From the NCBI GenBank assembly GCA_963697165.1, contig CAVOMX010000009.1, positions 32,001 to 96,000 of the forward strand: a stretch of DNA of 64,000 nt. The letters are read 5' to 3'. The notes under the pieces were generated by a model that saw nothing but the letters and a program-made list of their open reading frames with translations, was not told the origin of the DNA and made no database searches. How positions within the stretch are numbered: the stretch's first letter is position 1; every line of letters begins with the position of its first letter. The DNA comes from Candidatus Bathyarchaeota archaeon (GTDB lineage Archaea > Thermoproteota > Bathyarchaeia > Bathyarchaeales > Bathyarchaeaceae). The translations under genes were made by a program, and so were the position numbers. Shown here in pieces: positions 11,795 through 36,482 of the stretch.

Positions 11795-11856
11795 TCGCAA
11801 CAATAACCGAACATAGGCCAAATTATACGCGTTTTTCCGAAATTGCTCAGACATTG
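11795..11856 (-). other. 3' arm of 23S processing stem with bulge-helix-bulge
   Basis: Inverted repeat of 14950-15018; RNA CAAUGUCUG-AGCA-AUU-UCGGAA. Confidence 0.9.
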
Positions 11857-14949: not shown

Positions 14950-15018
14950 CAATGTCTGTTTAGCATCGGAAAACACACGTATTTACCTATTTGGCCTATG
15001 TTCGGTTATCATTGCGAG
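14950..15018 (-). other. 5' arm of 23S processing stem with bulge-helix-bulge
   Basis: RNA UUCCGA-UGCU-AAA-CAGACAUUG pairs with the 3' arm as 3-nt bulge/4-bp helix/3-nt bulge. Confidence 0.9.
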
Positions 15019-15217: not shown

Positions 15218-15528
15218 GGGTTGGTGAGCTGGCGGACGGCTTCGGGTGTCATTGACATCTGAGGAAACTCCGCCCACCACGCTGAACTGTAGCGCTTGTA
15301 AGGGCGCGGGGTGAGAGCCTTGGTTCCTGAGCAGAAACGGAACGTCCAATCGTGGGATGAGGATGATGCGTGTTAAGTCGCTGAGGATGCGGTTGGATGC
15401 GGTGAAACGGCTGTCCTGCAGGGTGAAAGGGCGAATAGGCGTCTGTGATTTCTGCGGGAGACGCGGGTAGCCCGTTTAGCTGAATGCCGTCATGAACAAA
15501 AGGCGGGTTACGTCCAGCACACCAACCC
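15218..15528 (+). ncRNA. rnpB: RNase P RNA
   Basis: P1 GGGTTGGTG/CACCAACCC; CR-I GAGGAAACTCCGCCC; CR-V AACAAAAGGCGGGTTA. Confidence 0.95.
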
Positions 15529-19099: not shown

Positions 19100-19440
19100 T
19101 CAACATCCTTAAACTGTTTAGATATACTATGCTGGTCCAACGAATCTCCTATTTCCTGTTCTTTACTCTGATATAAAAGTTCAAGGCAAAACAATTGTGG
19201 TAACTGCAAGATCTTTTTGTGTTCGAGTTATATATTTTAATCCCAAATGTTCACGGTGGTTTGTTGGTTTTTTATTTGTTTTTCGTGGAAAACCCGGATA
19301 CCATTTATTCAGTAGAAGCTTTTTGGTTCTAGCTCTGATTGCTTTTCTAACCTCATTAAAATTTCTCTGCTCGTCTCAGATAATACAAAATAAAAGTTAT
19401 TAATTAATCAATATACAAAGGTTCGTTTTTAACTAAATAT

Positions 19441-19469
19441 AAGGTGGGTTACGATCAGAACACCAATCC
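19441..19469 (+). repeat. Degenerate direct copy 2 of rnpB 3' end
   Basis: 24/29 identical to 15500-15528. Confidence 0.7.
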
Positions 19470-21516: not shown

Positions 21517-22308
21517 TTGGATCTCCTACCCATGTCCAAAGCTTACGGGACAATAAAGCTCAAGAAAAAACAGCATATAGCCTGGATAATCTTGGATAGA
21601 CCAGACAAGCTTAACGCCATAAACGCAGTCATGCTAGAGGAGCTGTCAGAGGCGATAGACAACATTGAGGAAGACGCGAACGTTAGATGTGTCGTAATCG
21701 AGGGAGAGGGAGAAAAGGCATTTAGCGCCGGAGCCGACCTCGCTGAACTTAAAAAACTCACGTCAGAGACTGCTACAGAATTCTCGGTTAAGGGACAACA
21801 GGTTTTCTGTAAGCTGGAAGGTCTATCTAAGCCTGTCATAGCAGCGATTCGCGGGTATGCTCTGGGTGGCGGACTTGAGCTAGCATTAGCTTGTGACTTC
21901 AGAATAGCATCAGACCGTGCAGAGTTGGGGTGTCCTGAAATAAAATTGGGGTTGATTCCGGCATGGGGAGGAACCGAGAGGCTACCGTTGGCTGTTGGGT
22001 TGTCTAATGCTAAACGGCTAATAATGCTTGGTGATAAAGTACAAGCCGATGAAGCGTACAAGATGGGTTTGGTGGATAAGGTCGTTCCCTCAAAGGAGTT
22101 GGAGGCTGAGGTGGAGGTGTTAGCTCAAAGACTATGTGAATGTGCTCGGGGAGCACTGAAATATACAAAGTGTGCCGTAAATTCTGGAACCCAACGTTCA
22201 CTTGATTCTGGATTAAAGAATGAAATCGAGTTTTTTGCTCTGCTGTTTTCTGTGAAAGAGACCAGAAAGAAGATAGAAGATTTTGGATCTCAGAGAAACA
22301 AAAAATAG
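21517..22308 (+). CDS. Enoyl-CoA hydratase/isomerase (crotonase)
   Basis: AFSAGADL, GYALGGGLELALACD, PEIKLGLIPAWGG. Confidence 0.93.
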   Translation: MDLLPMSKAYGTIKLKKKQHIAWIILDRPDKLNAINAVMLEELSEAIDNIEEDANVRCVVIEGEGEKAFSAGADLAELKKLTSETATEFSVKGQQVFCKLEGLSKPVIAAIRGYALGGGLELALACDFRIASDRAELGCPEIKLGLIPAWGGTERLPLAVGLSNAKRLIMLGDKVQADEAYKMGLVDKVVPSKELEAEVEVLAQRLCECARGALKYTKCAVNSGTQRSLDSGLKNEIEFFALLFSVKETRKKIEDFGSQRNKK

Positions 22309-22559
22309 GGAGCCTGCTAAGTCAGATTGACAAAGATTTGCGAAATTCTTTAGCTCATTGTCTGTTTATTTTAGAGGGTATCACATTAATTCACTATGAC
22401 AATTTGACTCTTCAAAACAAACATGAAATAATAGTTGAAGACCTATGGACAAAAGGAAGAAAACACAGTCTAATAGCTCAATGTCTTATTCATGTAATTG
22501 CTGATTGGTTTTCTGAAACTTAATATTATCAAATGAAATATCAACACAACAAGAAGTAG

Positions 22560-22594
22560 CCTCTTCGTGAAATGCTTCCAGAAACTATATTTTC
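22560..22594 (+). repeat. Cassette-boundary repeat copy A
   Basis: CCTCTTCGTGAAATGCTTCCAGAAACTATATTTTC. Confidence 0.85.
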
Positions 22595-22630
22595 TCTTGG
22601 GATAAATCTTAAGAAGGAGAAGGAAAAAAA

Positions 22631-23200
22631 TCAATAACGATAAAATCGGCGTCTTTCTTGTCGGATATATTCCCTAACTAACGGCAAAGATATTTCCTCA
22701 GTATCTCTAGCTTCTTGTTGTATTGAAGAACCTCGATAAATTCTCTGTTGAGATTTAATTTCAATGGCGTGCAATATTTCATGGAACAGAGTCTCAAGAT
22801 ACATTTCTCTGTCTCTTAATTGAGGCATTCTCAACATAATAAAATATTCAGTGTTTTCTAACTTGTCTAAAAACAACTTTTTTCTTTCTGCACCTTGCCA
22901 AAAATTGGCTATATTTATCAAATTATTTGTTGGAATATAATACCCCATAGCATCTTTGTAACTTGATATTTCACTTTCGCTTCCATGAGACTCATGAATT
23001 TCAACCGTTTCAGAAGATTCAAATAATCCTTCCTTAACCATTCTTTTCAATATGATTTTTCCTTTTTGTATAGACGTATAGAGAAGTTTCCATTCTCTTT
23101 CACTTGTTTCTAACACACACAATTCAAGTTCAGAAAATGGGTAATATTGTTTCAAAAAAGTAACATAACCATCAATTTCACCCTTTTCTAAAAACTTCAC
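22631..23200 (-). CDS. Hypothetical protein with HEXXH zincin motif
   Basis: ETLFHEILHAIE..E; GGGTGA RBS. Confidence 0.65.
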   Translation of the reverse strand: MKFLEKGEIDGYVTFLKQYYPFSELELCVLETSEREWKLLYTSIQKGKIILKRMVKEGLFESSETVEIHESHGSESEISSYKDAMGYYIPTNNLINIANFWQGAERKKLFLDKLENTEYFIMLRMPQLRDREMYLETLFHEILHAIEIKSQQRIYRGSSIQQEARDTEEISLPLVREYIRQERRRFYRY

Positions 23201-23282
23201 TCTTTCACCCTCTTAATTCGCTAAACTGGTTGATAATAAAAATTTTTGCTAACTGTAAAGAAGAGTCATGTTTGCAAATAAC

Positions 23283-23324
23283 AAGGCGGGTTACGACCCA
23301 GCAAGCCCGCCTCTTCGTGAAAAG
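23283..23324 (+). repeat. Degenerate copy 3 of rnpB 3' end adjoining left half of boundary repeat (copy B)
   Basis: AAGGCGGGTTACG..CCAGCA, then CCTCTTCGTGAAAAG at 23310. Confidence 0.7.
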
Positions 23325-23583
23325 TGAAGGACTGGTTTAGATTTTGTGTAAAGCAAGTGGTTTAAGTGTCGGGATATTGTCGTCCAATAAATTTTTATTC
23401 GGTATTGAATAGAGAAGAGCTTGAAGTGAAGTTGTATGGCTAAATGTGGAGTAGAACATAAAAAATGTTCATCGTCTATCCATGGGCACTGTTCATATGA
23501 GGAGCATGATAGCAATACCAAGCATTACTGTGGTAAGTGTTACACCGAATTCTAATGCACATGCACAGAAAAACCTTCTTTTT

Positions 23584-23674
23584 TTCCAGAAACTATATTT
23601 TCCTACGAAGATTCTTTTAGTTACTTCGTGAATTTTCTTTCTCATAATAAAAAGGTTTTAGGGTTCAATCTTTT
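23584..23674 (+). repeat. Boundary repeat copy C plus ~35-bp accessory motif shared with 35178-35213
   Basis: TTCCAGAAACTATATTTTCCTACGAAGA..CTTCGTGAA..TCTCATAATAAA. Confidence 0.75.
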
Positions 23675-23878
23675 GCAATCAATTAAGTTCATTGAAGCTG
23701 CAGTTTTTCTTTGCCCCTAATCCGTTAATACATATGCCTTAATTCGACTACACACCTCTTTTGTCCATATATATAATTTAATAAGACGTAGTTTGAGTCC
23801 AATGGTCGAGCGAAAAAGTGACGAGAACAACATTAACTATAGGAAATAACTGTTTGCTTTATTTCAGTTATATATAGT

Positions 23879-23947
23879 AATTTATACTTGTCAAAGAAAC
23901 CTCATTCTTGTTTACTGTTAACAGAAACTTTGTTTTCCAACAAAGAG
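23879..23947 (+). repeat. Boundary repeat copy D (long variant)
   Basis: 59/69 identical to 33487-33555. Confidence 0.85.
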
Positions 23948-24566
23948 TTTCCATGATCACATAAATAGACATAATGATTCTGTCAAAAAGAAGCGGATTC
24001 TGTGCGATTTGTCGAAGAGCTGGAGGAAAACATAAAAATGGGGTTGTATCCAGAAGAAGGGTTTGCTGAGGCTTTAGCACAGTTGTTGATGAGTAAGGTC
24101 ACATTCAATCTTTTTCAAGGGGGAAAGAATGTGTGCTCCTGTGCTTGCCTTTTCAGCCCCATTCTATTCTTTTTGGTAGTTCCAAAAAAGGGGGAAGATT
24201 TTTTTGTGTATTGTCTTGTTTGAATAAATTTACATCATTCCAAAGGATTAATCAAGTTTTTTTTTTTGTTCCAATCTGCTGTGAGTTGAATCGTGCTCAT
24301 TTTCTATTTCAGAGACTTCTTTTCTAATCGCAAGTTTTGTTTCTTTCTCTGGAAAGCCTTCTTCTGGTCCGCAATAGACAAGCTTAAAATCTGGTAACCC
24401 GATGATGCCAAACCCCACTCTTACGTTTTCGACGTCTCATTGACAACTCCCCCAAATAACCAAATCATACTCATTATTCTCCTTTCCACTTTAACCAATC
24501 AAACCTCCTTCAAATCTACAAATTTCTAACCGATTACTCCCACAAAAAAAGGGGAGGGAAATTGGT

Positions 24567-27185
24567 TTATTTTCGTTTCTTTAGTGCCCAGAAGCTGACT
24601 ACGCCAATTATGCTGGCAATTGCGACAGCTGCAATGATGGCTACTTCAGTGGTGATCAAAGGTGTTTCAGTGTGGCTCTGGTGAAGGTGACGGTTCAGGC
24701 AGGTTCGAAGGTGCTGGCGTTGGTGAAGGTTCTGGTGAAGGTGATGGGCTGGTGTAGGTGTTCTGGTGAGGTGATGGCTCAGGTGATGGTTCAGGTTCTA
24801 TTGTTCCACCTGCTGTTGCAGCTGGTGTTACGGCAAAGGATGTTGCTGCGCTTGAAGGCCAATAGGATTCAGATCCCGCAAACTTGGCGATAACTTTGTA
24901 AATTCCCTCGGTCGATGGGACATACATGTGCGCATAGTTGCCATCTGAATCAGATGTGACAGTAGTTATCCATTCTTCAGTGCCATCTGGTTTAACCACA
25001 AACAGATTCACTGGAACACCATCTGGGTTGGCGGATTGTTCAGCAGTGTTGCATTCTGCATATTAAGATAGTCCATCCACTCGCTCATGTCCTCATCAGA
25101 AACTGCTGGTAGTACCTGGCCTGAGCAGGAGATTGATCCAATAACATTGCCTTTTATCAGCACTGTATGCGCCACTTAGCGACGACATCATTCTGGTATT
25201 GTTACTGAAGTTGAGGTTTGGCCTTTGCCTAAGCAATAGAGGTTTCCATCGTAATCTCCGGTACCTATGACATAACCATTAGCAGCAGAAGAGGGGCGAA
25301 GTCCACCGTTTAAAGTAAATATAGTGTCTCCTGTAGTAGCGTCAATACATACGAGCATTCCAAACCTTGAAATAGGGTTGATTTTATACCCAGACGAATA
25401 GCCTGCGTAAACATAGATTTTACCATCTACCATGACCATGCCACTGAACGATAGGGCACTGCATTATTGGGGTACTCAGTTGAAGGAATAGGCTTACTCC
25501 GCCATACCTCATGTCCATCTGCCAAACTGTAAGCGCGCATTGTACCGTCCGGGAACATAAGCATACAAGTTATCGTTGTCATTGGTCTCAGCAAGTAAAC
25601 GGTCCATGTTGTAGCCCACGTAGAGTCGCAGAAGCTGTCACTTTCCCACAATTCAAAGCGCCAGTAAGCATGGAGTAGCATTTGAACGTTGATTCAGTTG
25701 GATCAAAGACAATAAAGTTGTCCACGCCATATAAACTGAATTGCTGGTTAGCTAGAGTCGGATAGTTCAGGGTAAGGTTCCATAGTGAGGTACCGTTTTC
25801 TGCGCTGTAACCCCAGATACTGGTTGGGTGCGGCTTTACCACAACCGTAGACGCATCTGTTGATATTCCGAAGAGAGATTGGGGACTGGCTACGCGATGT
25901 AGCTAGTTGATTCTGGCAGTGGGCGTTGTCCATTCAATTCCTGTCGGCCAATTATGACCACCAGTGCGTGTCCGTAAATGTTACAGTGACAACTTTCGAC
26001 ATGTTCCATGCTAAACAAGTTGTACGATCGTTGCTGTTCCATAGGCAAGATCGGTACCGTCAATAAGATTGAAGCACTTGCAGTAGCGTTAGCGATTGAC
26101 CGCACTAGTGTTCCAGTAAAGGGATCATAGTAATTCCACGTACTGCCAGAGGTTCCAAATAGGTACGGTGTATGGTATTGTCCATAGGAGCTCTCGAGAA
26201 CTACGTTCGAAGGATCAAAACATGCTTTGAGCATATGGGTTTCCAGGTAAGTGGATACCGCACAGTAATCGAGCCATCCACTGTGTACAATACTTCTCCA
26301 GTTGCTAAATCAATGCATTCAAACTGTGCCAGTATTCGCGAATATTTATCGAATACTTTGCCTTCCATGATTACAGCACTTGGATACTAGAACCTTGAGG
26401 ATCCATAGCTAAGGCTGCCATAATCTCCGCCTATAAGGCCTCCTGATCTAAGCGGTTGCTTCCAAACTATGTGGCCAGTGTTAGGTCCTGAACCATAGGG
26501 CTGCCAAATACGACAAGTAGGCACCGTTAACCGTAGCCGCCAGTTGACTGGCACTGCCAAGCCAGTCGCCTGAGATTTGGTTCCATTCTCTGTTGTTGCT
26601 GTTTATTGGGTAGCTCCAGAAAACGTTTGGGTTCGGCAGTGCTGACCACGGATAACCATTAAGCAAACCAGCCAGTACTCTTCAGTCTGAACTGTAAAGT
26701 AGGCATGTATTACTAGTGCATCCTATATATTGTACGGTTCCTGAACCGTCAGTTAAGTTCTGTGCAGGCATCGTGAACGATACACTCCAGTTACCCGCCA
26801 TGATTAGGCTCATAAAAGAAGTATATAGCGCCAAGTGACTGCGTTTGTCCTGGATCATAATTGACCTGTTCCGTCTACCGGCATGAACGTGTCTTTTGTT
26901 CCGTCAGGTCTTACGAACGTCACCGTTACTCCCCTATAGCCGTCATAAGTATGGCTGATAAGCATAGTTTGTAGGTATAGGATAGATGAATAGGTTTACA
27001 GTTGCTGTTTGGCCGACTCCGACAAGTCTTGGTGCAACGTCGATGTAACCTGTAGTTTTCTCTGGCTGAGGAACACCAATTTGAGCCTGCACTGGAATAT
27101 TTGCTAGCAACGAAAAAGCAGATGTTATTAAAATTGCCAAAATGATTGATGCTGTTAATTTTGTTTTGTTTATTGAAATTTGCAT
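24567..27185 (-). CDS. Large secreted PQQ-like beta-propeller surface protein with Pro/Ser linker and C-terminal TM (many frameshifts; pseudogene or assembly error)
   Basis: Signal peptide; Trp-containing blade ends (DGHEVW, ENGTSLW); FAGSESYWPSS; PEPSPSP repeats; TM plus KKRK tail. Confidence 0.75.
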
Positions 27186-27424
27186 TGTTTTTTCTCCTTT
27201 TTGAGTTTTTTCCATCTTTACATTTTATTGTTTTTGGGAAAAAGAATTAAACTAAAAAATACTTGATCTTCCCCCTAGAATGCTATTTTGTAACAAAGAA
27301 GTATTTAACATTAAGTGTCAGCCCATGACTGACAACTTCTGAATCATTAATACCTTCGAAATAAGATGGGAAAAAACAAATTGTCTCTGTGCTTAGGTTT
27401 CGACTAATGTTTAGCAAAGGTAAA

Positions 27425-27492
27425 CCTCTTCGTGAAAAGCTTCCAGAAACTTTATTTTCCAACGAGCAGTCCAAGGCATAACTTGAATAGAA
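27425..27492 (+). repeat. Boundary repeat copy E
   Basis: 27427-27492 is 59/66 identical to 31391-31456. Confidence 0.9.
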
Positions 27493-27500
27493 TTGGGTTT

Positions 27501-27774
27501 TTATGCACTTGCCCTGAAATACATTCGATTATTAACAACTTTTCTTGAAATTTTTCCTTTACTTACTAAATCCTGAAGAACCGAAACAAAATTTGCGACC
27601 ATGAACGTAGCCATTTTGGAAGTCCCTGGCACATCAAAATCTACATTAAAACTTGTCGACCCCATTATTTCATCGTCAGTAAAGGCTTTTTCCTTGACGC
27701 TTCTTCAAGAAAGAGATAATCTCATCTTCCAGCTTAATAGAGACCCTTACAAATTTCTCTTTGTCTATGGGCAT
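27501..27774 (-). CDS. Small winged-helix-like protein (~90 aa, one frameshift)
   Basis: GGAGTGA RBS; MPIDKEKF..EIISFLKK / KAFTDDEI..LQDLVSKGKISRKVVNNRMYF. Confidence 0.55.
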
Positions 27775-27972
27775 AGATATCACTCCATCATAAATCTATG
27801 AAACAAGAGCTTGAAATTGTTTATGTAACTCAAATCATAAGCATAACTAATAGTTTAAGCCAAACGTTTGTCGTAATTCGCTCGCATCCAGAAACTTGTA
27901 TCTATTATTCACAACTTGTTTATACATAATTGTCTGAATTACCTAATATCTTGAGGTTCAGGCGTTTATTCA

Positions 27973-30478
27973 ATGAGTAGTGACATATCAATTGAAGCTT
28001 TTATTCAACATCTTGAAGAATTAAAAAAATTAACCGAATTTGAGAGATTTCGCAAATTTCTAAGGCTATTTTTAATTGGATTCTTCATAGGTAGAGAAAA
28101 CAAAAAAAGAATAAAAGTATTAGCCTTAGAACTAAATAATATACTCCAACAAAAAAGTTGTGATTTGGAAAAACATGTATCAAATTCTTTAGGTATGAGC
28201 ACATATCTAATTTCATCAGAAAAAAAAGGATTGTTAGATTCAATAGGCGTTTTAATAAATGGGCTTAAACAATTTTCAAACTCTAAAGTTCCGAATGTCG
28301 AATATATTAAAGAAATTGAGGAAAAGCTGACAACACTAAAAGAGTCAGTACTTGACTACAATAGCTCCTTCATTAGGCAAAGAAAAAGGGATTACCGTTA
28401 TCTCTGGAGTAATGGGGAGTTTACTCTTGATGAGGAACAAATTACATCAATTGTAACTGACGATAAACATAATTTGGTGGTAGCTGCTGCAGGTTCAGGC
28501 AAAACAGAGTGGTACCAAATCACAAGAATTGCATACATAGTAAAAAGACAACCTGACTTTAGTCCACAAGAAAGAATTTTGGCAATTGCTTATCAAAACA
28601 AAGCTAGTGGTGAAATTGGAAGAAGACTAAAAGATAGATATGAAATTACGAACGTTAATGTAAGTACCTTTCACAAGTTAGGTAAAGGTATTTTAGAAGA
28701 AGCAAGAAGCAAATATCGCCACTCTGATATAATTGATAATAATAAAAAACGAAGAACCATAGATAACCTTTTTAGACAAAAAATTGAAACTAACCAAAAA
28801 TACTACAATTTGTTTCTAAGTTATGTTAAAACTCTCCATGATAAAGAAAAAAAGGAAACTGGAGAGGCAAACGGTATTTCTCTAGAATACGCTATAAAAC
28901 AAGCCTATGTATCCATAGATAGAACCCAGGTAAATAGCAGAGCTGAAAAAGAGATTATAGACTTCTTTCTGATTCACAAGCTCAATGGAAAAAAAATCAT
29001 AGTAGAATATGAACCTGATGTGGGTGGATTTAGACCTGATTTTTACTTGCCACAATATGATTTATACATTGAACATTGGGCTTTAAATAAAAATGGAGAA
29101 GTACCAGAATGGTTCAATCAATCCTCTGATGAATATAAGAAATCAATGGATATGAAAAGGACATGGTTTAAAGCTCACAATAAATTATTTGTGGAAACCT
29201 TTACACACGAGTATAAGAAGAATAAGTCTGACAATTTTATTGAATTATTGAAGAAAAGAGTCATAGATGCACTAGAAACTAGAAGCAATCAAGATTTTGA
29301 ATTTAGTCTTAAAAGTTATGATGAAATTGTTGAAATTGCCTGGAACTCTTATCTGTACTCCAGTAGATGATTTAATTAACTTCATAACATCTGCAAAAAC
29401 CTATGGTTTGTCTCCAATAAACGTAAAGGGAAGACTAGAGAAGAGAAAATGGAGTGCTAAACAGATAGCTTTTGGGAATCTTGTTTTGCCAATATTTACA
29501 GAATATGAAGAGTTATTGCACTTGGAAGATAAAATCGATTTTGAGGATATGATAAATAAAGCAACAGCTGAATTAGAGAACAATCAGAACTTGCGTGCTA
29601 ATGTGTATGACCATATTCTAATTGATGAATATCAAGATATTAGTGCGCAAAGATACAACCTAATCAAAGTCATGATGGAAAGAAATCCTAATTGTAAACT
29701 ATTTTGTGTTGGAGATGACTGGCAAAGTATCATGGGTTTTTCAGGCTCTAACATAAATTATTTTGTAAGGTTTGCAGAATATTTTGAAGACCCAGCAATA
29801 ACCATAATCTCAACTAACTATCGAAGTAACCGTACAATTGTTGATGCAGGTGCAGATTTGATAAAGGACAATACAAGTTGTCAGGTACAAAAACCAACTA
29901 AAGCAAATAACAGTCAAACTAAATCAATTAAAGTGCTTAGGTCTCCTCACAAGAAAGATTATGAATATAAATATCACCAGCAAATTGCTGAGGACTGTAT
30001 AAATCGCATAGTTGAATATCTTGAAAATGGTTATGCACCAACAGATATACTTGTGCTCACAAGATGCATGCGAACTAGGACCCGATTTGGATACAGATAC
30101 CTACCAACAATTCAGATAATCAAAGAATTGGCAGAAGTAAACAATTTAGATGTAATTCACCAAAATTGGGAGAGTCCAAGAGGCATTAGATTACTTACTG
30201 CACATAGCAGCAAGGGTTTAGAAGCAAAAGTAGTTTTTATTATTAATGGTACCAAGGATATTTTTGGTTTCCCATGTGAAATAGAAGATTCTAATATTTA
30301 TGAGCTAGCAAGAACAAACTATCCGCCTCAAGATAATCTAGAGGAAGAACGAAGGCTATTCTATGTAGCAATGACTCGTGCAAAGGATGAACTTTATATT
30401 TACACTTGGGAACCAGCAATGAGTAATTTTCTAACTGAAATTGAAGAGCATACTAAAGAAATCCGACTAAATTACTGA
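27973..30478 (+). CDS. UvrD/helicase IV-like SF1 helicase with inserted PD-(D/E)XK-like nuclease domain (frameshift near 29355)
   Basis: AAAGSGKT, ILIDEYQD, VGDDWQSI, NYRS, SKGLE, EERRLFYVAMTRAK; insert SRAE..RPDFYL..IEHW. Confidence 0.88.
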
Positions 30479-30773
30479 ATAATTATACCCGTGCAAAACC
30501 TTTTACGCCTCCAAATTAGATGGTTTTTTGTTAAATAGATAAACCCAAGTTTATATTCATCCTTTTTCAGTATCGCTTCTGAAGATAAAATTTCATCTAT
30601 TTTCTGCTTTACTTTGTCTTCTTGATTTATTCCGAATAAAGGACCCAAAACATTTCCCTTCTGTTCTTAAGACCAATTTAGCTATAACATTTCTCCTAAT
30701 TGATTGTTAGAGCGTGAATTTTCCGAAAAAAGTTAAAGCAACTTAACCGAAAAAAGGAACATGAGAGATAATC

Positions 30774-31373
30774 TTGACTTCTAATGATTTGGTCAGATAC
30801 AAAATATTGGAAATACTTTTCAACAAAGCCTCGTTGAGAGGAACAGACTGGAATGTTAAACGTAAGGAAATGATAGAATCATTACCATTTGAGGAGAAGC
30901 AAATTGACTTCAACTTTTTTTATCTTTTCGACAAAGGTCTAGCTAAAATGTTCAAACACACATCTAAAAACTGGGAAACCGCAACAATCACAAGCAAAGG
31001 CATAGACGTTATCGAGCATAAACAGAATTTTGTTGAAGAATTACCCTTTATTCAGGTTGCGATTCAAGAAATCAATGCACCTATATACGGTAATGCGATT
31101 CAAGCTGTCAATTCCACAATTACCTTTAATCAACAAGTGACGGATGCCTTCAAACAAACCTATCAAACACTTGAAACTAAGAAAGATTTGACACCCGAAC
31201 AGAAAACAGAGATAAAGAAAAACTTGATTATTCTAGAAGAGGAACTAAAAAGCAAAGACAAAGACGCGGGTAAAATCCAAAAGTTGTGGAAAAGAATCAA
31301 GAAAAATGCTAGTTGGATAGCTCCAATACTTGTTAATATTGTCCTAAAAGGATTGGAGATTTCAATAGAATAA
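30774..31373 (+). CDS. Hypothetical protein with wHTH-like N-terminus and helical C-terminus
   Basis: Intact ORF; YLFDKGL..ITSKGID wing-like pattern. Confidence 0.65.
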   Translation: MTSNDLVRYKILEILFNKASLRGTDWNVKRKEMIESLPFEEKQIDFNFFYLFDKGLAKMFKHTSKNWETATITSKGIDVIEHKQNFVEELPFIQVAIQEINAPIYGNAIQAVNSTITFNQQVTDAFKQTYQTLETKKDLTPEQKTEIKKNLIILEEELKSKDKDAGKIQKLWKRIKKNASWIAPILVNIVLKGLEISIE

Positions 31374-31390
31374 TCATGCAAACAGTAAAA

Positions 31391-31456
31391 TCTTCGTGAA
31401 ATGCTTCCAGAAACTTTATTTTCCTACGAGCAGTTCAAGGGACAATTTAAATAGAA
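31391..31456 (+). repeat. Boundary repeat copy F
   Basis: TCTTCGTGAAATGCTTCCAGAAACTTTATTTTCCTACGAGCAG... Confidence 0.9.
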
Positions 31457-31531
31457 ATAGCAAGAAACAAAAAGAACCATAAGCAGAAAAAATGATGAAG
31501 TTGGAAACCAAACGTTGATAATTACAGAAAC

Positions 31532-31561
31532 AAATCACATTCAAAGACTTCCTAACAGAAC
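31532..31561 (+). repeat. 30-bp direct repeat, left copy
   Basis: 28/30 identical to 32270-32299. Confidence 0.85.
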
Positions 31562-31720
31562 AGATTTGATGAACATAGAACCTACGTTTTTGATGATGTT
31601 TATTCTATAAAATTATTAATATTCACCACAAATGTTATCTAAAGGTATATTTGATAACGTAATCGGGGGAGAGATTACTTTCTGTAATTTTCCTTTCAAA
31701 AAAGATAGAATGGAGGTGAA

Positions 31721-32176
31721 GTGAATTTGAAGTCTCGTTCTGTGAATATTGCTTGGAAAATACTGATGATTCCTAACCTTGTTTTTGTAGTCTTTGGTCT
31801 TGCATTTGTGTTAATTCCAGATGCCATTTTGGGTAGTGGCTTTGAATTGTATACTGGTCAAACTTGGAGCAATCTTGTTTCCACAAGTCCTGAAATCACT
31901 GATTTCATTTTGTTAACTGCAGGCAGAATGTTTGGTGTTCATATTCTTGTTCTCACAACTCTAGCCATCGCTATAACCCTTAAAGGTTTTAGAAATGGAG
32001 AAAGCTGGTCATGGTATGCCTTTATTGCAATCAGTTTTGGTATGATTTTTGACACAGTTGCGGTATTTATCATGGGGGAAATACCTGTTGTAGTGATAGA
32101 CATAATCATGCTATTGCTCATGTACATAGCACTAGGAATTTCTGCAAAGGATATGCTCAGTAAAAAATCCACCTGA
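31721..32176 (+). CDS. Four-TM membrane protein
   Basis: GGAGGTGA RBS; hydrophobic; GESWSWY motif. Confidence 0.75.
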   Translation: MNLKSRSVNIAWKILMIPNLVFVVFGLAFVLIPDAILGSGFELYTGQTWSNLVSTSPEITDFILLTAGRMFGVHILVLTTLAIAITLKGFRNGESWSWYAFIAISFGMIFDTVAVFIMGEIPVVVIDIIMLLLMYIALGISAKDMLSKKST

Positions 32177-32269
32177 GCATGCTACCTTCTCTAAAACCCA
32201 AACTCCTCTTTTTTTCTTAATGAAACCCAATAACATTAGGTTATTATGTGTACAAAGTTGGATGATGCA

Positions 32270-32299
32270 AAATCATATTCAAAGACTTCCCAACAGAAC
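32270..32299 (+). repeat. 30-bp direct repeat, right copy
   Basis: AAATCATATTCAAAGACTTCCCAACAGAAC. Confidence 0.85.
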
Positions 32300-32872
32300 G
32301 TAATTAATAATCACAAAGCTTTAATGTATATTCCAGCGTATTATAATTGCTGAGCCATCAAGGGGACAAATCAAAACATACCTCTAGCTCAAGCGTTTTT
32401 GAACATAAAATTTCATTATTTTGTAAGATAGATATGGATTGTTTTTTAGTAAAGTTTATTTTCTTATATTTCATTTATGATGAAGAGTAGTATCCCAATC
32501 TGAACTGGTTCTATCTCCCCCTGATGACTCAGTTTCATTATGATTGGGATACTGCTTTCCTTCTCAACATTACATCTTTGTTGATAATAGAACATTCTTT
32601 TATAACATTTCTAAACCTTAACCACAAATATTATTACGGTAAATACCTGATAAAACAATTGGGGGAGTCCACAAATCCAATTCTGGGTTAGTCATTGTAA
32701 CGGTTAATTATCTGTTAGAAACACTACATTCTGAAGTCTGTCACTAACTTTGGTGGCACACAACCACTTTTCAACTCAAACGAAACAAAACTCAGTTCTC
32801 TGCTTCAGAGACCAGAAGCAAACGGAGACACTCTCTAATCAGAGTTAATAAAGGAAGAAGGGAGGTGAAAGA

Positions 32873-33361
32873 ATGAATATGAAAATTTTAGGTGTTTTCG
32901 TTAGTTTGTTTACTTTAGCTTTGTTAACGATTCCAGTAATGGCTGCACCAGCAACAAAAATTGAAGGGGTTACATTGACTAGAGTCACTACACCACCCGT
33001 TCAGGATCCTGGCTTTCCACGGTTGGTAAGTCATGATACCATATCACATGGAAGAGGCACAACTACAGGTACAGCTACTCTAACCATAGGACAAGACATT
33101 CATGATGGAGATTGGGATAGTGAATGGATTTCCGTGGTTAATTTGAAAAAAGATCCAGTTGAGATGGTAATTAGCGCTACGGTCAAATTGACTTTCACAG
33201 GAGGCACGTTTGAGGGTACGAGCCATAGAAAGATAATAGGGTACCCACCTGGACCTAGTTCAATTATCGAAACCCATATGGTACTTCAGGGTACTGGAGA
33301 TTTTAGGGGACAAACACTAAAACATTCAGGTGGTACTTACTATCTAATAATGCCCAAATAA
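32873..33361 (+). CDS. Secreted beta-rich hypothetical protein
   Basis: GGAGGTGA RBS; signal peptide ending IPVMA; LQGTGDF motif. Confidence 0.75.
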   Translation: MNMKILGVFVSLFTLALLTIPVMAAPATKIEGVTLTRVTTPPVQDPGFPRLVSHDTISHGRGTTTGTATLTIGQDIHDGDWDSEWISVVNLKKDPVEMVISATVKLTFTGGTFEGTSHRKIIGYPPGPSSIIETHMVLQGTGDFRGQTLKHSGGTYYLIMPK

Positions 33362-33486
33362 CCAAAATAAAGAACCGTAACACCACATTTCCTCTTTTTT
33401 CTATCCAGAAACAGTAACATCAGATTTTATTGGTTTGTGGGTAAATCGAATTTTCTAAACAGTGCATTTTTGCAGTTAACTAAGTC

Positions 33487-33584
33487 AATGTATACTTATC
33501 AAAGAAATCTCCTTCTGGTATACTATTAACAGAAACTTTATTTTCCCACGAAGAGCCTCAGGCAACCTCTTCGTGAAAAGCTTC
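33487..33584 (+). repeat. Boundary repeat copy G (long variant followed by a left half)
   Basis: ..CTATTAACAGAAACTTTATTTTCCCACGAAGAG-10 bp-CCTCTTCGTGAAAAGCTTC. Confidence 0.9.
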
Positions 33585-33646
33585 TTTCTTCTGAAGGCAG
33601 ATTTTATATAGAAAAAACAAGAAATCCTATTCAAGGAAAGAGTCTC

Positions 33647-34927
33647 GTGAACAAAGAATTTCTCGAAGACTATCAAAAAAAAGAATTAGAAGAATACAGA
33701 TCGTATTGCAATAAAATTGATCTTGAAAGTTTCTCATTTAAAAAATTTCCATATCCACCAGATGAACGTTTCGTTAAAATTAAAAAACCAGTAACAATTG
33801 CAAGTAATGAATCATTAAAAGGGGATGCAATTTGGGCACAATTACCTTTTACTGGTTCTTTAATTTTTCCAATATTTGATATTCCAAAAAGAAGATTTGA
33901 AGAAATCTTTTTCCAAACGAAAGAAATCCCAAAATTAATTGATTATGTTAAGGAAACAGGAAAGTTACAATTTGTTTTAATCGGGGATCTCAAAAGATTT
34001 GAAAAATATGATTATTTGGAACCAATATTTACAGAATTGAAACCTCCAATGCTTTTTGGAATTAGTACCCACGATTTAGGTAATAAAAAAGATATAATTG
34101 AGGCTGGAATGAAGTTTGAAACCCTTGCTAATGTAAATTATTCACGTTTCGTCTGGGAAGAATCACAACAAAAGGGCAGCTTTGCTTATAAACCAATAAT
34201 GGATAGCTGTTCATCAACATATGTAAAGTTAAAAATGCTTCATTTTGACGCAATTATGGAATCTCTTGAGAACTACATGATTGTCGATCCATACAAAGCA
34301 TTCTTTATGTTTGATTTATGTAGTAAGTATATTGTTAGTCCATTAACCACACTTAGACATGAAGGAATTAATTCAACAACTGAAGAAATTCAAAAACTAA
34401 AAAATCTAATTCCAGATCATAAACTTGAGGAAACCATATTTCCAGTTGAAATTGGAAAGTTCCTCTTGAATAAACTAACTCGCGCCCCCAAAGGGCAATA
34501 TGCTTGTAATGAATTAATTAGCCATTATGAAGATTACGATTTAAGAAAAATTGTTCTCGCTTTAAACACCGCTATTGTTGAAAATCAATTTTATGACATA
34601 GAGCAAAATATTGAAACACTGTCGGAAATTCTTGAAAACGTATGGTCTGACCCCCTAATTAAGACAAGGATTGAACTCCAAAAATATGCTGTTCTAATAA
34701 TATTTGCAGCAATTGGGATTAAAATTGCACAATTAGAGGGGGGCGTGGGAGGATTTCTTACAGGAATTGGGATTACTGTTACTGTTTTAAACAAATATAT
34801 TGATAAAGAAGGTGACAAGATTTTTGAAAAAATAGCCAAGTTGCGTTGTCGAGGACATCAGGTTAACATTTTTGATTTTCAAAAAACATACAAAAATATA
34901 ATCCCTCAAAATAACACAAAGAGTTGA
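33647..34927 (+). CDS. AT-rich hypothetical protein with C-terminal hydrophobic hairpin
   Basis: 426-aa intact ORF, no recognised family. Confidence 0.75.
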   Translation: MNKEFLEDYQKKELEEYRSYCNKIDLESFSFKKFPYPPDERFVKIKKPVTIASNESLKGDAIWAQLPFTGSLIFPIFDIPKRRFEEIFFQTKEIPKLIDYVKETGKLQFVLIGDLKRFEKYDYLEPIFTELKPPMLFGISTHDLGNKKDIIEAGMKFETLANVNYSRFVWEESQQKGSFAYKPIMDSCSSTYVKLKMLHFDAIMESLENYMIVDPYKAFFMFDLCSKYIVSPLTTLRHEGINSTTEEIQKLKNLIPDHKLEETIFPVEIGKFLLNKLTRAPKGQYACNELISHYEDYDLRKIVLALNTAIVENQFYDIEQNIETLSEILENVWSDPLIKTRIELQKYAVLIIFAAIGIKIAQLEGGVGGFLTGIGITVTVLNKYIDKEGDKIFEKIAKLRCRGHQVNIFDFQKTYKNIIPQNNTKS

Positions 34928-35086
34928 TAATGCATTTTATGTTACCTTTTAACACGGGGTGATAGAGATTCTTAGTCAAATAGCAGTAAGTTAGTTAAAT
35001 AAAACGTTACCTTTTTTATGCTATTTCAATATGAAAAACCAATGTTTACTTATTGTTTTGATAGTATGTTTTCCCTCACATAAAGT

Positions 35087-35250
35087 GGGTTTCTATTAAC
35101 ACATCTCAGCGAAAAGCTTCCAGAAAATTTATTTTCCAACAACGAGCCTATATGCAGTTTGTAGCTGAAAAGAAAAGTCTCATAATAAAGAAGGCTTTTT
35201 AGGGTAATCTTTTCTCCCTACTTGCATGGTTTGGCATTCTATTAACAGAA
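35087..35250 (+). repeat. Boundary repeat copies H and I plus accessory motif
   Basis: GGGTTTCTATTAACA..GAAAAGCTTCCAGAAAATTTATTTTCCAAC; TCTCATAATAAA at 35178; TTCTATTAACAGAA at 35237. Confidence 0.8.
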
Positions 35251-35315
35251 GTGCTATTTACTTACTAAAAAAAGTTAGTTATGTCAGAATAGCAGTAGTT
35301 TGGCAGGGATGAAAT

Positions 35316-36482
35316 ACGAATAAGGTAGCAATTATTGGGGTGGGTCACAGCAGATTTGGAGACCGCTCAGACGTTAACCTTTCCGAGTTATCGTTTGAGG
35401 CAATTCAGCCATCCCTTGAAAGTTCAGGATTATTTGCCAAAGATGTTCCCTACATGGCTCTTGGGTCGATGGGTGTCTGGTCAGAGGAGCCTTTACCCGC
35501 CGTTGTAATAGCAGAATACTGTGGATTAACAGGAGCAGGATTGGTTAGATGCGAGGCAGCCTGTGCTTCAGGAAGCGCCGCCGCATTCAATGCCTATTCT
35601 GCAGTCAGGAGCGGTCAGATGGACACAGCATTAGTTGTTGGTGTGGAGAAGATGAGGCAGATAGACATGCCAACCGTGTTGGAGATTATTGGCAGAGCAG
35701 GATATTACATGTGGGAGTTCGAAAATTTTGGCATGACATTTCCAGCATATTATGCTGTTCATGCAGTTCAGCATATGGAAAAGTATGGCACCACAGAGGA
35801 TGACCTTGCTAATGTTGCCGTGAAAAGCCATAAGTATGGTGCCATGAATCCGATGGCTCATCTACGACATGAGATAACTGTGGAGAAGGCGCTAGGTTCA
35901 AGCGTGATTGCGTGGCCATTGAAGCTCTATGATTGTTGTCCAATAACGGATGGCTCGGCAGCAGTTGTTTTAGCGTCTGAAGCGAAGGTAAAGGAGCTGG
36001 GAATCGAAGATCCTGTGTGGATAGAAGCTATGGGTGTTGCTTCGGATACTGCTAACATTTCCAAGAGAGAAAGTTATGTGGGTTTGGATGCTTCTGTAAG
36101 GGCGTCAAGAATGGCGTATAGGATGGCGGGAATATCGTCAAAAGATGTGGATGTTGCAAATGTTCATGATTGTTTTACCATCGCAGAAATCATGGCTTAT
36201 GAAGACTTGGGCTTTTGTGAGAAGGGCGAAGGAGCAACTATGGTCAGGGAAGGCGAGACAGAGGTGGGTGGCAGAATTCCAGTTAATGTTGATGGGGGAT
36301 TGAAGTCTAAGGGGCATCCAATTGGAACCACAGGTGTTTCCATGCTTGTGGAACTGACAAAACAGTTACGTGAAGAGGTTAGACCGAATAGTAGACAGGC
36401 TGCCATGAAGAATTACATTGCCTTGGCTCATAACACTGGGGGAACAGGTCACTATGGCTACGTGACGATACTTCGGAGATGA
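35316..36482 (+). CDS. Archaeal (SCP-x type) thiolase / acetyl-CoA acetyltransferase
   Basis: NKVAIIGVG N-terminus, EAACASG, HDCF, KGHPIGTTG, HNTGG; start codon uncertain. Confidence 0.92.
   Translation, partial: TNKVAIIGVGHSRFGDRSDVNLSELSFEAIQPSLESSGLFAKDVPYMALGSMGVWSEEPLPAVVIAEYCGLTGAGLVRCEAACASGSAAAFNAYSAVRSGQMDTALVVGVEKMRQIDMPTVLEIIGRAGYYMWEFENFGMTFPAYYAVHAVQHMEKYGTTEDDLANVAVKSHKYGAMNPMAHLRHEITVEKALGSSVIAWPLKLYDCCPITDGSAAVVLASEAKVKELGIEDPVWIEAMGVASDTANISKRESYVGLDASVRASRMAYRMAGISSKDVDVANVHDCFTIAEIMAYEDLGFCEKGEGATMVREGETEVGGRIPVNVDGGLKSKGHPIGTTGVSMLVELTKQLREEVRPNSRQAAMKNYIALAHNTGGTGHYGYVTILRR

Follow-up and report, generated by a model that had tools for sequence, protein, structure and literature searches.

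In the literature searched, integrons are the only archaeal cassette-capture system that we found described, as presented in the main text of the relevant paper (PMC9668308). Archaeal CALINs, as set out there, are integron cassette arrays without an integrase (bioRxiv 10.1101/2022.02.06.479319, the same paper as PMC9668308), and the word 'Bathy' is absent from its main text. In the xrs/pdif modules of Acinetobacter (PMC11705084) and in Xer/dif systems (PMC2958812, PMC8371274), the recombinase is described as working in trans, and the dif sites of Thermococcales are described as also carrying outer inverted repeats (PMC2958812, PMC8371274).

The 64,000 nt stretch of Bathyarchaeota DNA analysed here (the window) contains an array that resembles CALINs, as the main text of PMC9668308 describes them, in having same-orientation sites between short, variable, tandem cargo, no adjoining integrase and defence-type cargo. 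Unlike those CALINs, it lacks attC ends, a folded single-strand structure and IntI; its cargo consists of genes of either orientation that have promoters of their own, its 44 bp sites are near-constant, and such arrays occupy many core-gene junctions. The attC ends RYYYAAC...GTTRRRY bracket none of 42 site records (background 0.95%), which agrees with an earlier, sequence-only reading of the window. The array is also like the xrs/pdif modules as presented in PMC11705084, where variable modules are flanked by short sites in double-stranded DNA, one arm of which is well kept and starts TTAT. However, xrs cassettes mostly have inverted flanking sites in that account, whereas all copies here are direct, chromosomal and multi-copy. 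When the sites were set out in the dif layout (11-6-11), arm symmetry averaged 2.1/11 and none of 34 sites reached 8/11. With Tn916/CTnDOT-type elements that have coupling sequences, as described in PMC5812530, they share an arm beside differing short cores (foreign in 3/34 sites here) and many AT-rich insertion loci, but these arrays contain no int/xis or conjugation genes and the core is identical in 27/34 sites.

The inserted island and its cargo

The array lies in an inserted island of 12,962 bp (22321..35282), found between the genes for enoyl-CoA hydratase (21517..22308, + strand) and thiolase (35340..36482, + strand). The GC content of the island is 0.36, compared with 0.39 and 0.44 in its flanks. 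A 6 bp direct repeat, GTCAGA, is present at the left (22321..22326, + strand) and right (35283..35288, + strand) and is single in the empty site. Of 20 relatives, 19 lack the island, and the empty site was also found in contigs of two runs. As the left border precedes the first site by 240 bp, the idea that the repeats bound the island is not supported, and neither border is at a full site.

Genes on both strands lie between the sites, as the sequence-only reading had it. On the - strand, a 189 aa protein (22631..23200) is zincin-like by its HExxH motif only and has no Pfam or NCBIfam match. It is followed by a PQQ-type beta-propeller/Ig paralog (24560..27215), which is in frameshifted pieces in this assembly; the pieces match Pfam weakly, whereas intact paralogs match PQQ_2. 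The remaining cargo is on the + strand. A UvrD-type helicase with a nuclease-like insert (27973..30478) was recognized correctly, though it is split over two frameshifted ORFs, and it has GajB-like profile matches. The 199 aa protein (30774..31373) and the 151 aa hydrophobic protein (31721..32176) that follow have no family match. Next is a module made up of a conserved non-coding leader, which matches C9:102051-101491 at 82%, and a gene for a 162 aa secreted-type protein (32270..33361). The last gene (33647..34927) encodes a 426 aa protein of an unnamed family that has 21 relatives at 29–44% identity, one of them named from a Bathyarchaeota archaeon. The wHTH gene that had been proposed was not confirmed: the segment 27501-27878, which matches a second locus of the genome at 91% identity, contains no intact ORF of 80 aa.

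When viral contigs were searched with three patterns, none carried the site, and two matches to the 18 bp left-arm pattern fall within coding sequence and were attributed to chance. A virus or plasmid origin was rejected, as there was no phage match and plasmids returned one 30 bp chance match.

Copies and anatomy of the site

The 44 bp site consists of an 18 bp left arm, an 8 bp core and an 18 bp right arm, and each copy was scored by how many of its 44 positions agree with a natural copy close to the consensus. All ten places originally listed have the motif, but the ten are not equivalent: four are full 44 bp sites, three have a diverged left arm, two lack the core and one is decayed. All are on the + strand and between genes, as had been claimed. 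The full sites are at 27426..27469 (41/44), 31390..31433 (38/44), 35103..35146 (36/44), which is preceded by a decayed copy of the left-flank family LF1, and 22561..22604 (34/44), where the left arm, core and inner right arm are intact and the outer right arm is lost. The site at 23569..23612 (27/44) has a T-rich (C-type) left side followed by the core and right arm. Two B-type sites are at 23855..23947, with an AT-rich left extension of approximately 70 bp, the core at 23922 and a right arm (44 bp unit at 23904, 30/44), and at 33463..33555, with the core at 33530, an intact right arm and a diverged left arm (44 bp unit at 33512, 31/44). Only the left arm is retained at 23311..23354 (23/44), where the core is replaced and the right arm decayed, and at 33567..33624 (22/44), which begins 11 bp past the preceding site and runs into a TATA-like tail (D) and then the next gene.

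The decayed B-type site at 35228..35271 (21/44) ends 11 bp short of the right junction of the island. Its right part scores 17/26, a level that a few other island positions also attain, but its left 16 nt match the copy at 33512 at 13/16. It is homologous to the end of a 600 bp insertion that G012 has at this point. At 23228..23299 (+ strand), LF1 is a junction that carries the 3' end of the RNase P RNA gene and comes from a separate integrase system.

A 17 bp core sequence matched the window seven times on the + strand and never on the - strand (≤2 mismatches), against a mean chance expectation of 0.05 (60 dinucleotide shuffles). The matches are confined to 22.5–35.3 kb, bearing out the statements that the copies share one orientation and that the core regions hold no strong copy.

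Information peaks in the 8 bp core and inner right arm, which form the conserved part of the site. The imperfect hairpin described previously exists only in the consensus. For the two best copies in the window, folding is no stronger than in shuffled sequences (z −0.08 to 0.62), and when the strands of three full sites were folded, the six z values ranged from −0.83 to 0.62. An alignment of 17 full sites revealed compensatory change at 0/6 pairs. In 19 sites the outer 9 bp arms are complementary at a median of 6/9 positions, never at 9/9. The inner arms at spacer 8 have a mean symmetry of 4.0/11. Good folding was seen only at the right-arm/left-arm junction at 33530-33590 (z −3.06). A hairpin or RNA function was rejected, given no Rfam family in the island and no covariation.

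The core resembles an archaeal BRE-TATA pair, and mechanical ORF calls place a same-sense ORF start to the right of 21 of 31 sites, as might be expected if the site served accessory genes as a promoter or as the binding element of a regulator. However, the same calls have 10/31 sites facing the 3' end of a gene, and distances range from 28 to 677 bp. As the neighbours are functionally unrelated and a promoter would leave the exchange of flanks unexplained, we consider this explanation highly improbable.

Flank exchange and spread in the genus

Among 35 sites, 25 pairs (which are not independent) have one flank in common, 11 the left only and 14 the right only, and no pair has both. The loci L012 and L015 are 99.97% identical over 3,211 bp and diverge exactly where the left arm begins, at its first base. 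Thirteen contigs of run X3 match rightwards from position 27425 and have unlike sequences to the left, though run contigs were matched at 85% likeness, a level at which joints can stem from other organisms. Across genomes, the site at one and the same core locus is found with different left cargo (epimerase, tRNA-Gln and creatininase, three each). In a few cases a foreign 8-mer occupies the position of the core beside the right arm (2/34 wholly different and one with two changes; one more in G001), as expected if exchange occurs at both core edges. The left-only copies resemble core deletions and the B- and C-type left sides resemble diverged arms, so that neither demonstrates reciprocal exchange products. 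No circular form of a module was seen, and comparison of near-identical strains revealed no precise gain or loss of one cassette. We conclude that the sites are real, polar and intergenic, that they lie in strain-variable DNA, and that they are the points at which their left and right neighbouring DNA is exchanged.

The site was found in 7/24 relatives, within this genus only, and 17/24 had no match. A single-copy dif was rejected for this reason and because a genome has several loci. About 14 core-gene junctions have the site. A second same-strand array, L011, includes at least nine full or half sites with one to three genes between them. Copies are all direct in the window, L011, L015, L131 and C9:100-102 kb, and orientation is never mixed within a locus. 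Among the cargo of the arrays are genes of defence type (NgoPII-type restriction enzyme, HNH, UvrD). L131 is labelled Chloroflexia, but it has archaeal genes and 70–85% matches to G000, and is probably a mis-binned contig; cross-domain transfer was therefore rejected. Weak model matches in coding DNA, such as G005:C1:521070, were discarded, as were three isolated matches to the core in G000 (C11, C12 and C17). Other dispersed intergenic families exist in the genome, and two of them, F1 and F2, have short words in common with the site yet are separate.

The extended flanks LF1, B, D and RF4 travel with the site and are conserved across unrelated loci. LF1, a frequent left flank, derives from a different integrase system that targets RNase P RNA. 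Together with the other dispersed families, these companions would suit a process with no dedicated enzyme, in which the site rides on duplicated promoter or terminator segments and modules are reshuffled when 44–120 bp copies recombine through homology or microhomology. We think this unlikely, as it leaves unexplained both the sharp edges of homology at the core and the 17 bp non-coding core, which hardly varies between genomes with about 77–87% identity in the genes that they share.

Candidate enzymes and routes of movement

MITE-bounded mobile units of the IMU/TIME type have passenger genes within short inverted arms and are moved in trans. Short inverted arms enclose passenger genes here too, but there is no target duplication at single sites and no matching transposase, and the interior is better kept than the ends. 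The arms could nonetheless be subterminal inverted repeats of non-autonomous transposons, namely a 44–48 bp MITE and longer forms with cargo (left arm, promoter, gene, terminator, right arm), with an unseen transposase and arrays formed by nested insertions. Indeed, several units run from left arm to right arm (23311-23612 in the window, C9:102536-100701 and three in L011), and in two arrays 11 bp separate a right arm from the next left arm. The right junction of the island, with its 6 bp duplication, is also 11 bp past a decayed right arm, and TA is found 2 bp beyond the arm at 12/27 left and 16/35 right ends. However, whichever edge was tried, a duplication of ≥4 bp was seen at no more than 1/20 single sites, and only 5/20 had one dinucleotide on both sides. 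The conserved flanks, the unmixed orientation and, in G000, no IS630, IS110, IS200 or DDE_Tnp_1 transposase also argue against transposition. Nested MITEs, which the sequence-only reading had offered as its alternative, are weakened, and we regard them as rather unlikely. Random orientation or target duplications, named there as signs against gene capture, were looked for: orientation is not random, and target duplications of ≥4 bp are present at 1/20 single sites at most.

Eight enzyme families were searched. G000, which is 81% complete, contains 10–12 matches to tyrosine recombinases, the only abundant candidates, and none to resolvase, IS110, Y1, DDE_Tnp_1, DDE_3, large serine recombinase or Cas1 families. 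An autonomous transposon partner was not found in five site-bearing genomes among the families searched. No IS110/IS1111 DEDD transposase was by a site in four genus genomes, and REP/IS200-IS605 (HUH) elements fit poorly, with no Y1 transposase in five genomes and no stable hairpin at the site. Fragments of Cas1, as a casposon would have, were present in 3/5 genomes, none in G000 and none with an adjoining site. Six of the recombinase ORFs in G000 score ≤62 bits for IntI against a cut-off of 265, and none of 25 genus genomes exceeds the NF040815 cut-off for XerA, though a divergent Xer may be present. No recombinase is within or adjoining any array, and around 56 recombinase loci no site is closer than about 1.5 kb. 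In an island of G019, a recombinase-like ORF, P0001, is 9 kb from a site, a pairing unmatched elsewhere. It was rejected as the cognate enzyme, as its relatives in 7/24 genomes are never beside a site, and it has no viral relative.

Considering the empty site, flank exchange, second array, information peak at the core and abundant tyrosine recombinases, we give roughly even credence to the repeats being oriented sites for site-specific recombination, worked in trans, at which modules are exchanged in one Bathyarchaeia-type genus. A tyrosine recombinase encoded elsewhere would bind the arms as double-stranded DNA and exchange strands at the edges of the 8 bp core, and modules between direct copies would exit and enter as circles. 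The site and its right-hand tail, planted beside a core gene, may serve as a landing platform with modules piling up on the left, and the outcome would be integron-like arrays without attC, attI or IntI. The poor symmetry of the inner arms, which is unusual for a single tyrosine recombinase, counts against such recombination sites. The gene capture in trans proposed from the sequence fits the strain-variable insertion, the change of flanks at the site, the unmixed orientation and the lack of an adjacent recombinase, but its hairpin substrate and ten equal copies are not supported.

The literature searched, with most subscription papers and supplements outside its scope, describes no such site in Bathyarchaeia. 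Somewhat more tentatively, the genus may have an undescribed archaeal cassette system with oriented 44 bp sites, a trans-acting tyrosine recombinase, platforms beside many core genes and self-expressing modules, in parallel to the tRNA- and RNase P RNA-anchored arrays of the same genome. The proposal is directly testable, with a short site, a small number of candidate enzymes, and public runs that contain both empty and filled alleles. If it is true, this would be a second, attC-independent capture system in archaea, invisible to IntegronFinder, with a new recombinase-site pair, and it would explain part of the turnover of accessory genes (defence, membrane and secreted) in an abundant sediment lineage.

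The 44-bp site and the island that contains it

Exact-seed repeat finding in the window recovered the repeat, a 44-bp site made up of an 18-bp left arm, an 8-bp core and an 18-bp right arm. The single orientation of its copies claimed in the sequence-only reading was confirmed: a 17-bp core word occurs seven times on the forward strand and never on the reverse, always within 22579–35121; shuffled sequences (n=60) averaged 0.05 occurrences. When scored against a natural near-consensus copy, four of the ten copies listed in that reading stood as full sites (34–41/44). The other six did not, being three cores and right arms with a diverged left side, two left arms only and one decayed copy. The imperfect hairpin ascribed to the unit was not borne out, as folding of the sites gave no special hairpin. 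Per-position information peaks in the core and the inner part of the right arm, partly through bias because the search patterns spanned these parts. Across 34 sites, the core was identical in 27, had one change in four and two in one, and was wholly foreign in two, both of which retain an intact right arm.

Outside the window, which spans C9:32001–96000 of the genome (G000), a left-only site and a right site flank a 1.8 kb module (C9:102536–100701) and contig C16 carries one full site. A weak right-arm/left-arm half-site pair (C9:21300–21345) lies beside a provirus remnant with portal and capsid matches (C9:14000–21400).

The thiolase locus was found in 20 of 24 relatives, and in 19 of these 20 a hydratase or dehydrogenase gene directly adjoins the thiolase gene. 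In runs X1 and X2, contigs pass directly from 22320 to 35283, with 6 bases in common. From the empty site in relatives and these joints, we conclude that the island (22321–35282) is a 12,962 bp insertion with a 6 bp direct repeat. The related genome G012 has a 600 bp insertion at the same point, the right end of which is homologous to that of the island. The left border lies 240 bp ahead of the first site, and the right border 11 bp beyond the decayed copy.

An Rfam scan found archaeal 23S rRNA and RNase P RNA genes in the window, and one island cargo protein has a relative named from a Bathyarchaeota archaeon; on this basis the host is taken to be probably of Bathyarchaeia type. Many genes, core genes included, contain frameshifts that are probably assembly indels, so broken cargo ORFs are not necessarily pseudogenes.

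Distribution and breakpoints

The strict site pattern matched 2/60 relatives and 2/400 genomes of the class, both within the same genus as G000. A profile search was positive in 7/24 genomes of the genus and in 0/35 from other genera of the family. Further sites were found in eleven metagenome loci and one genome contig. Sites are located at approximately 14 different core-gene junctions, including thiolase, epimerase, ProRS, tRNA-Gln, tRNA-Pro, creatininase, phosphoesterase, phosphomannomutase and NifU/HDAC. At these, the right arm faces conserved DNA and the left side is variable DNA. At eight compared junctions that bear sites in other sequences, G000 has none. That the site is a promoter element is very improbable, as 10/31 sites face the 3′ end of a gene. 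A second array, L011, has at least nine full or half sites on the same strand within 6 kb, alternating with small genes (HNH, NgoPII-type restriction, MscS-type, DUF1801 and others).

Loci L012 and L015 are 99.97% identical over 3211 bp and diverge exactly where the left arm begins. Flank families recur across unrelated loci. Among 35 right-arm-bearing sites, 25/595 pairs, which are not independent, have exactly one flank in common (score ≥36 versus ≤22; pairs with <60 nt of flank skipped) and none has both. In run X3, matches of 13 contigs begin at 27425 with unlike left-hand sequence, and several joints connect the left flank of one site to the right flank of another; as these contigs matched at 85% likeness, other organisms contribute to the joints. 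The sites are real, polar, intergenic and within variable DNA, and flanks have been exchanged at them. Passive recombination among duplicated intergenic segments is a quite unlikely account.

Locus L131 (G430:C5), filed under Chloroflexia, has archaeal genes close to those of G000 and is likely mis-binned; two sites surround three ORFs together with the remnant of an IS-like transposase. PQQ-type propeller genes (window 24560–27215 and many contigs) form a large expansion with a promoter in common, and there are six loci (window 27426, C9:102536, C16, L048, L081 and L131) where their upstream region adjoins a site.

Candidate enzymes and mechanism

G000 yielded 10 PF00589 and 12 NF040815 matches. 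The XerA cut-off (NF040815) was exceeded in none of 25 genomes of the genus, and the six G000 recombinase ORFs tested fell far below the IntI cut-off. The 1.99 Mb G000 assembly (81% complete) had no resolvase, IS110, Y1, DDE_Tnp_1, DDE_3, large serine recombinase or Cas1 matches. No site lay within approximately 1.5 kb of 56 recombinase loci. In G019, an island on the 5′ side of tRNA-Gln carries, at the end 9 kb away from a site, a recombinase-like ORF, P0001 (L048:1396–2499). This ORF was rejected as the site enzyme, as its relatives are not adjacent to sites; its first catalytic arginine appears replaced.

We give an even chance, as a whole, to a proposal in which a tyrosine recombinase acting in trans would carry out strand exchange at the borders of the 8-bp core, with modules moving in circular form and sites next to core genes acting as platforms. 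The poorly symmetric inner arms and the island borders, which are not located at full sites, count against this proposal. A non-autonomous transposon with subterminal arms is unlikely: units ordered left arm–gene–right arm, a recurring 11 bp gap and partial TA flanks fit it, but target duplications are lacking at single sites, and no transposase of the families searched was found.

Tyrosine recombinases that combine an IS1-type zinc ribbon at the N-terminus with a basic C-terminus (L022, L023 and others) form a family that reaches 23 matches in a single genome. Three genomes of the genus carry solo Cas1 fragments (L196–L199), possibly remnants of casposons.

Intermingled and comparable systems

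One common left flank of sites is the RNase P RNA gene 3′ end with an added arm; it comes from a separate integrase system, and the two systems intermingle. The RNase P RNA gene 3′ end (window 15224–15522) is repeated at 19420–19460, delimiting a 4 kb island, and in G014, G024 and G006 a 307–324 aa tyrosine recombinase match adjoins such copies. The 23S rRNA gene lies between a 29 bp inverted pair (93%; window 11795–11823 and 14989–15017), the expected processing stem, and the Rfam scan of the window found no 16S gene beside it. At C10:2327–25837, about 14 same-strand copies of a tRNA-3′-end-derived junction lie between cargo genes over 24 kb, adjoining a tRNA and a fragment of a tyrosine recombinase; they make up a cassette array anchored at the tRNA, and approximately 40 related pieces occur across G000. 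A dispersed 57 bp intergenic family (approximately 40 places, e.g. C9:86475 and C25:138791) is probably the promoter region of a gene family that has expanded.

In array workings, the site family resembles integron cassette arrays without an integrase (CALIN), described in 10.1101/2022.02.06.479319, but it has no attC ends and no hairpin, and there is no IntI among the recombinase ORFs tested. It likewise resembles the xrs module arrays of PMC11705084, but without the 11-6-11 structure, XerA and inverted pairs. PMC2958812 and PMC8371274 served for comparison with Xer/dif, and PMC5812530 for Tn916/CTnDOT-type tyrosine-recombinase elements. No description of the 44-bp site was found in the literature searched, and the family is apparently undescribed so far. 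The repeat is real, beyond chance and linked to module exchange, with a putative recombination mechanism.
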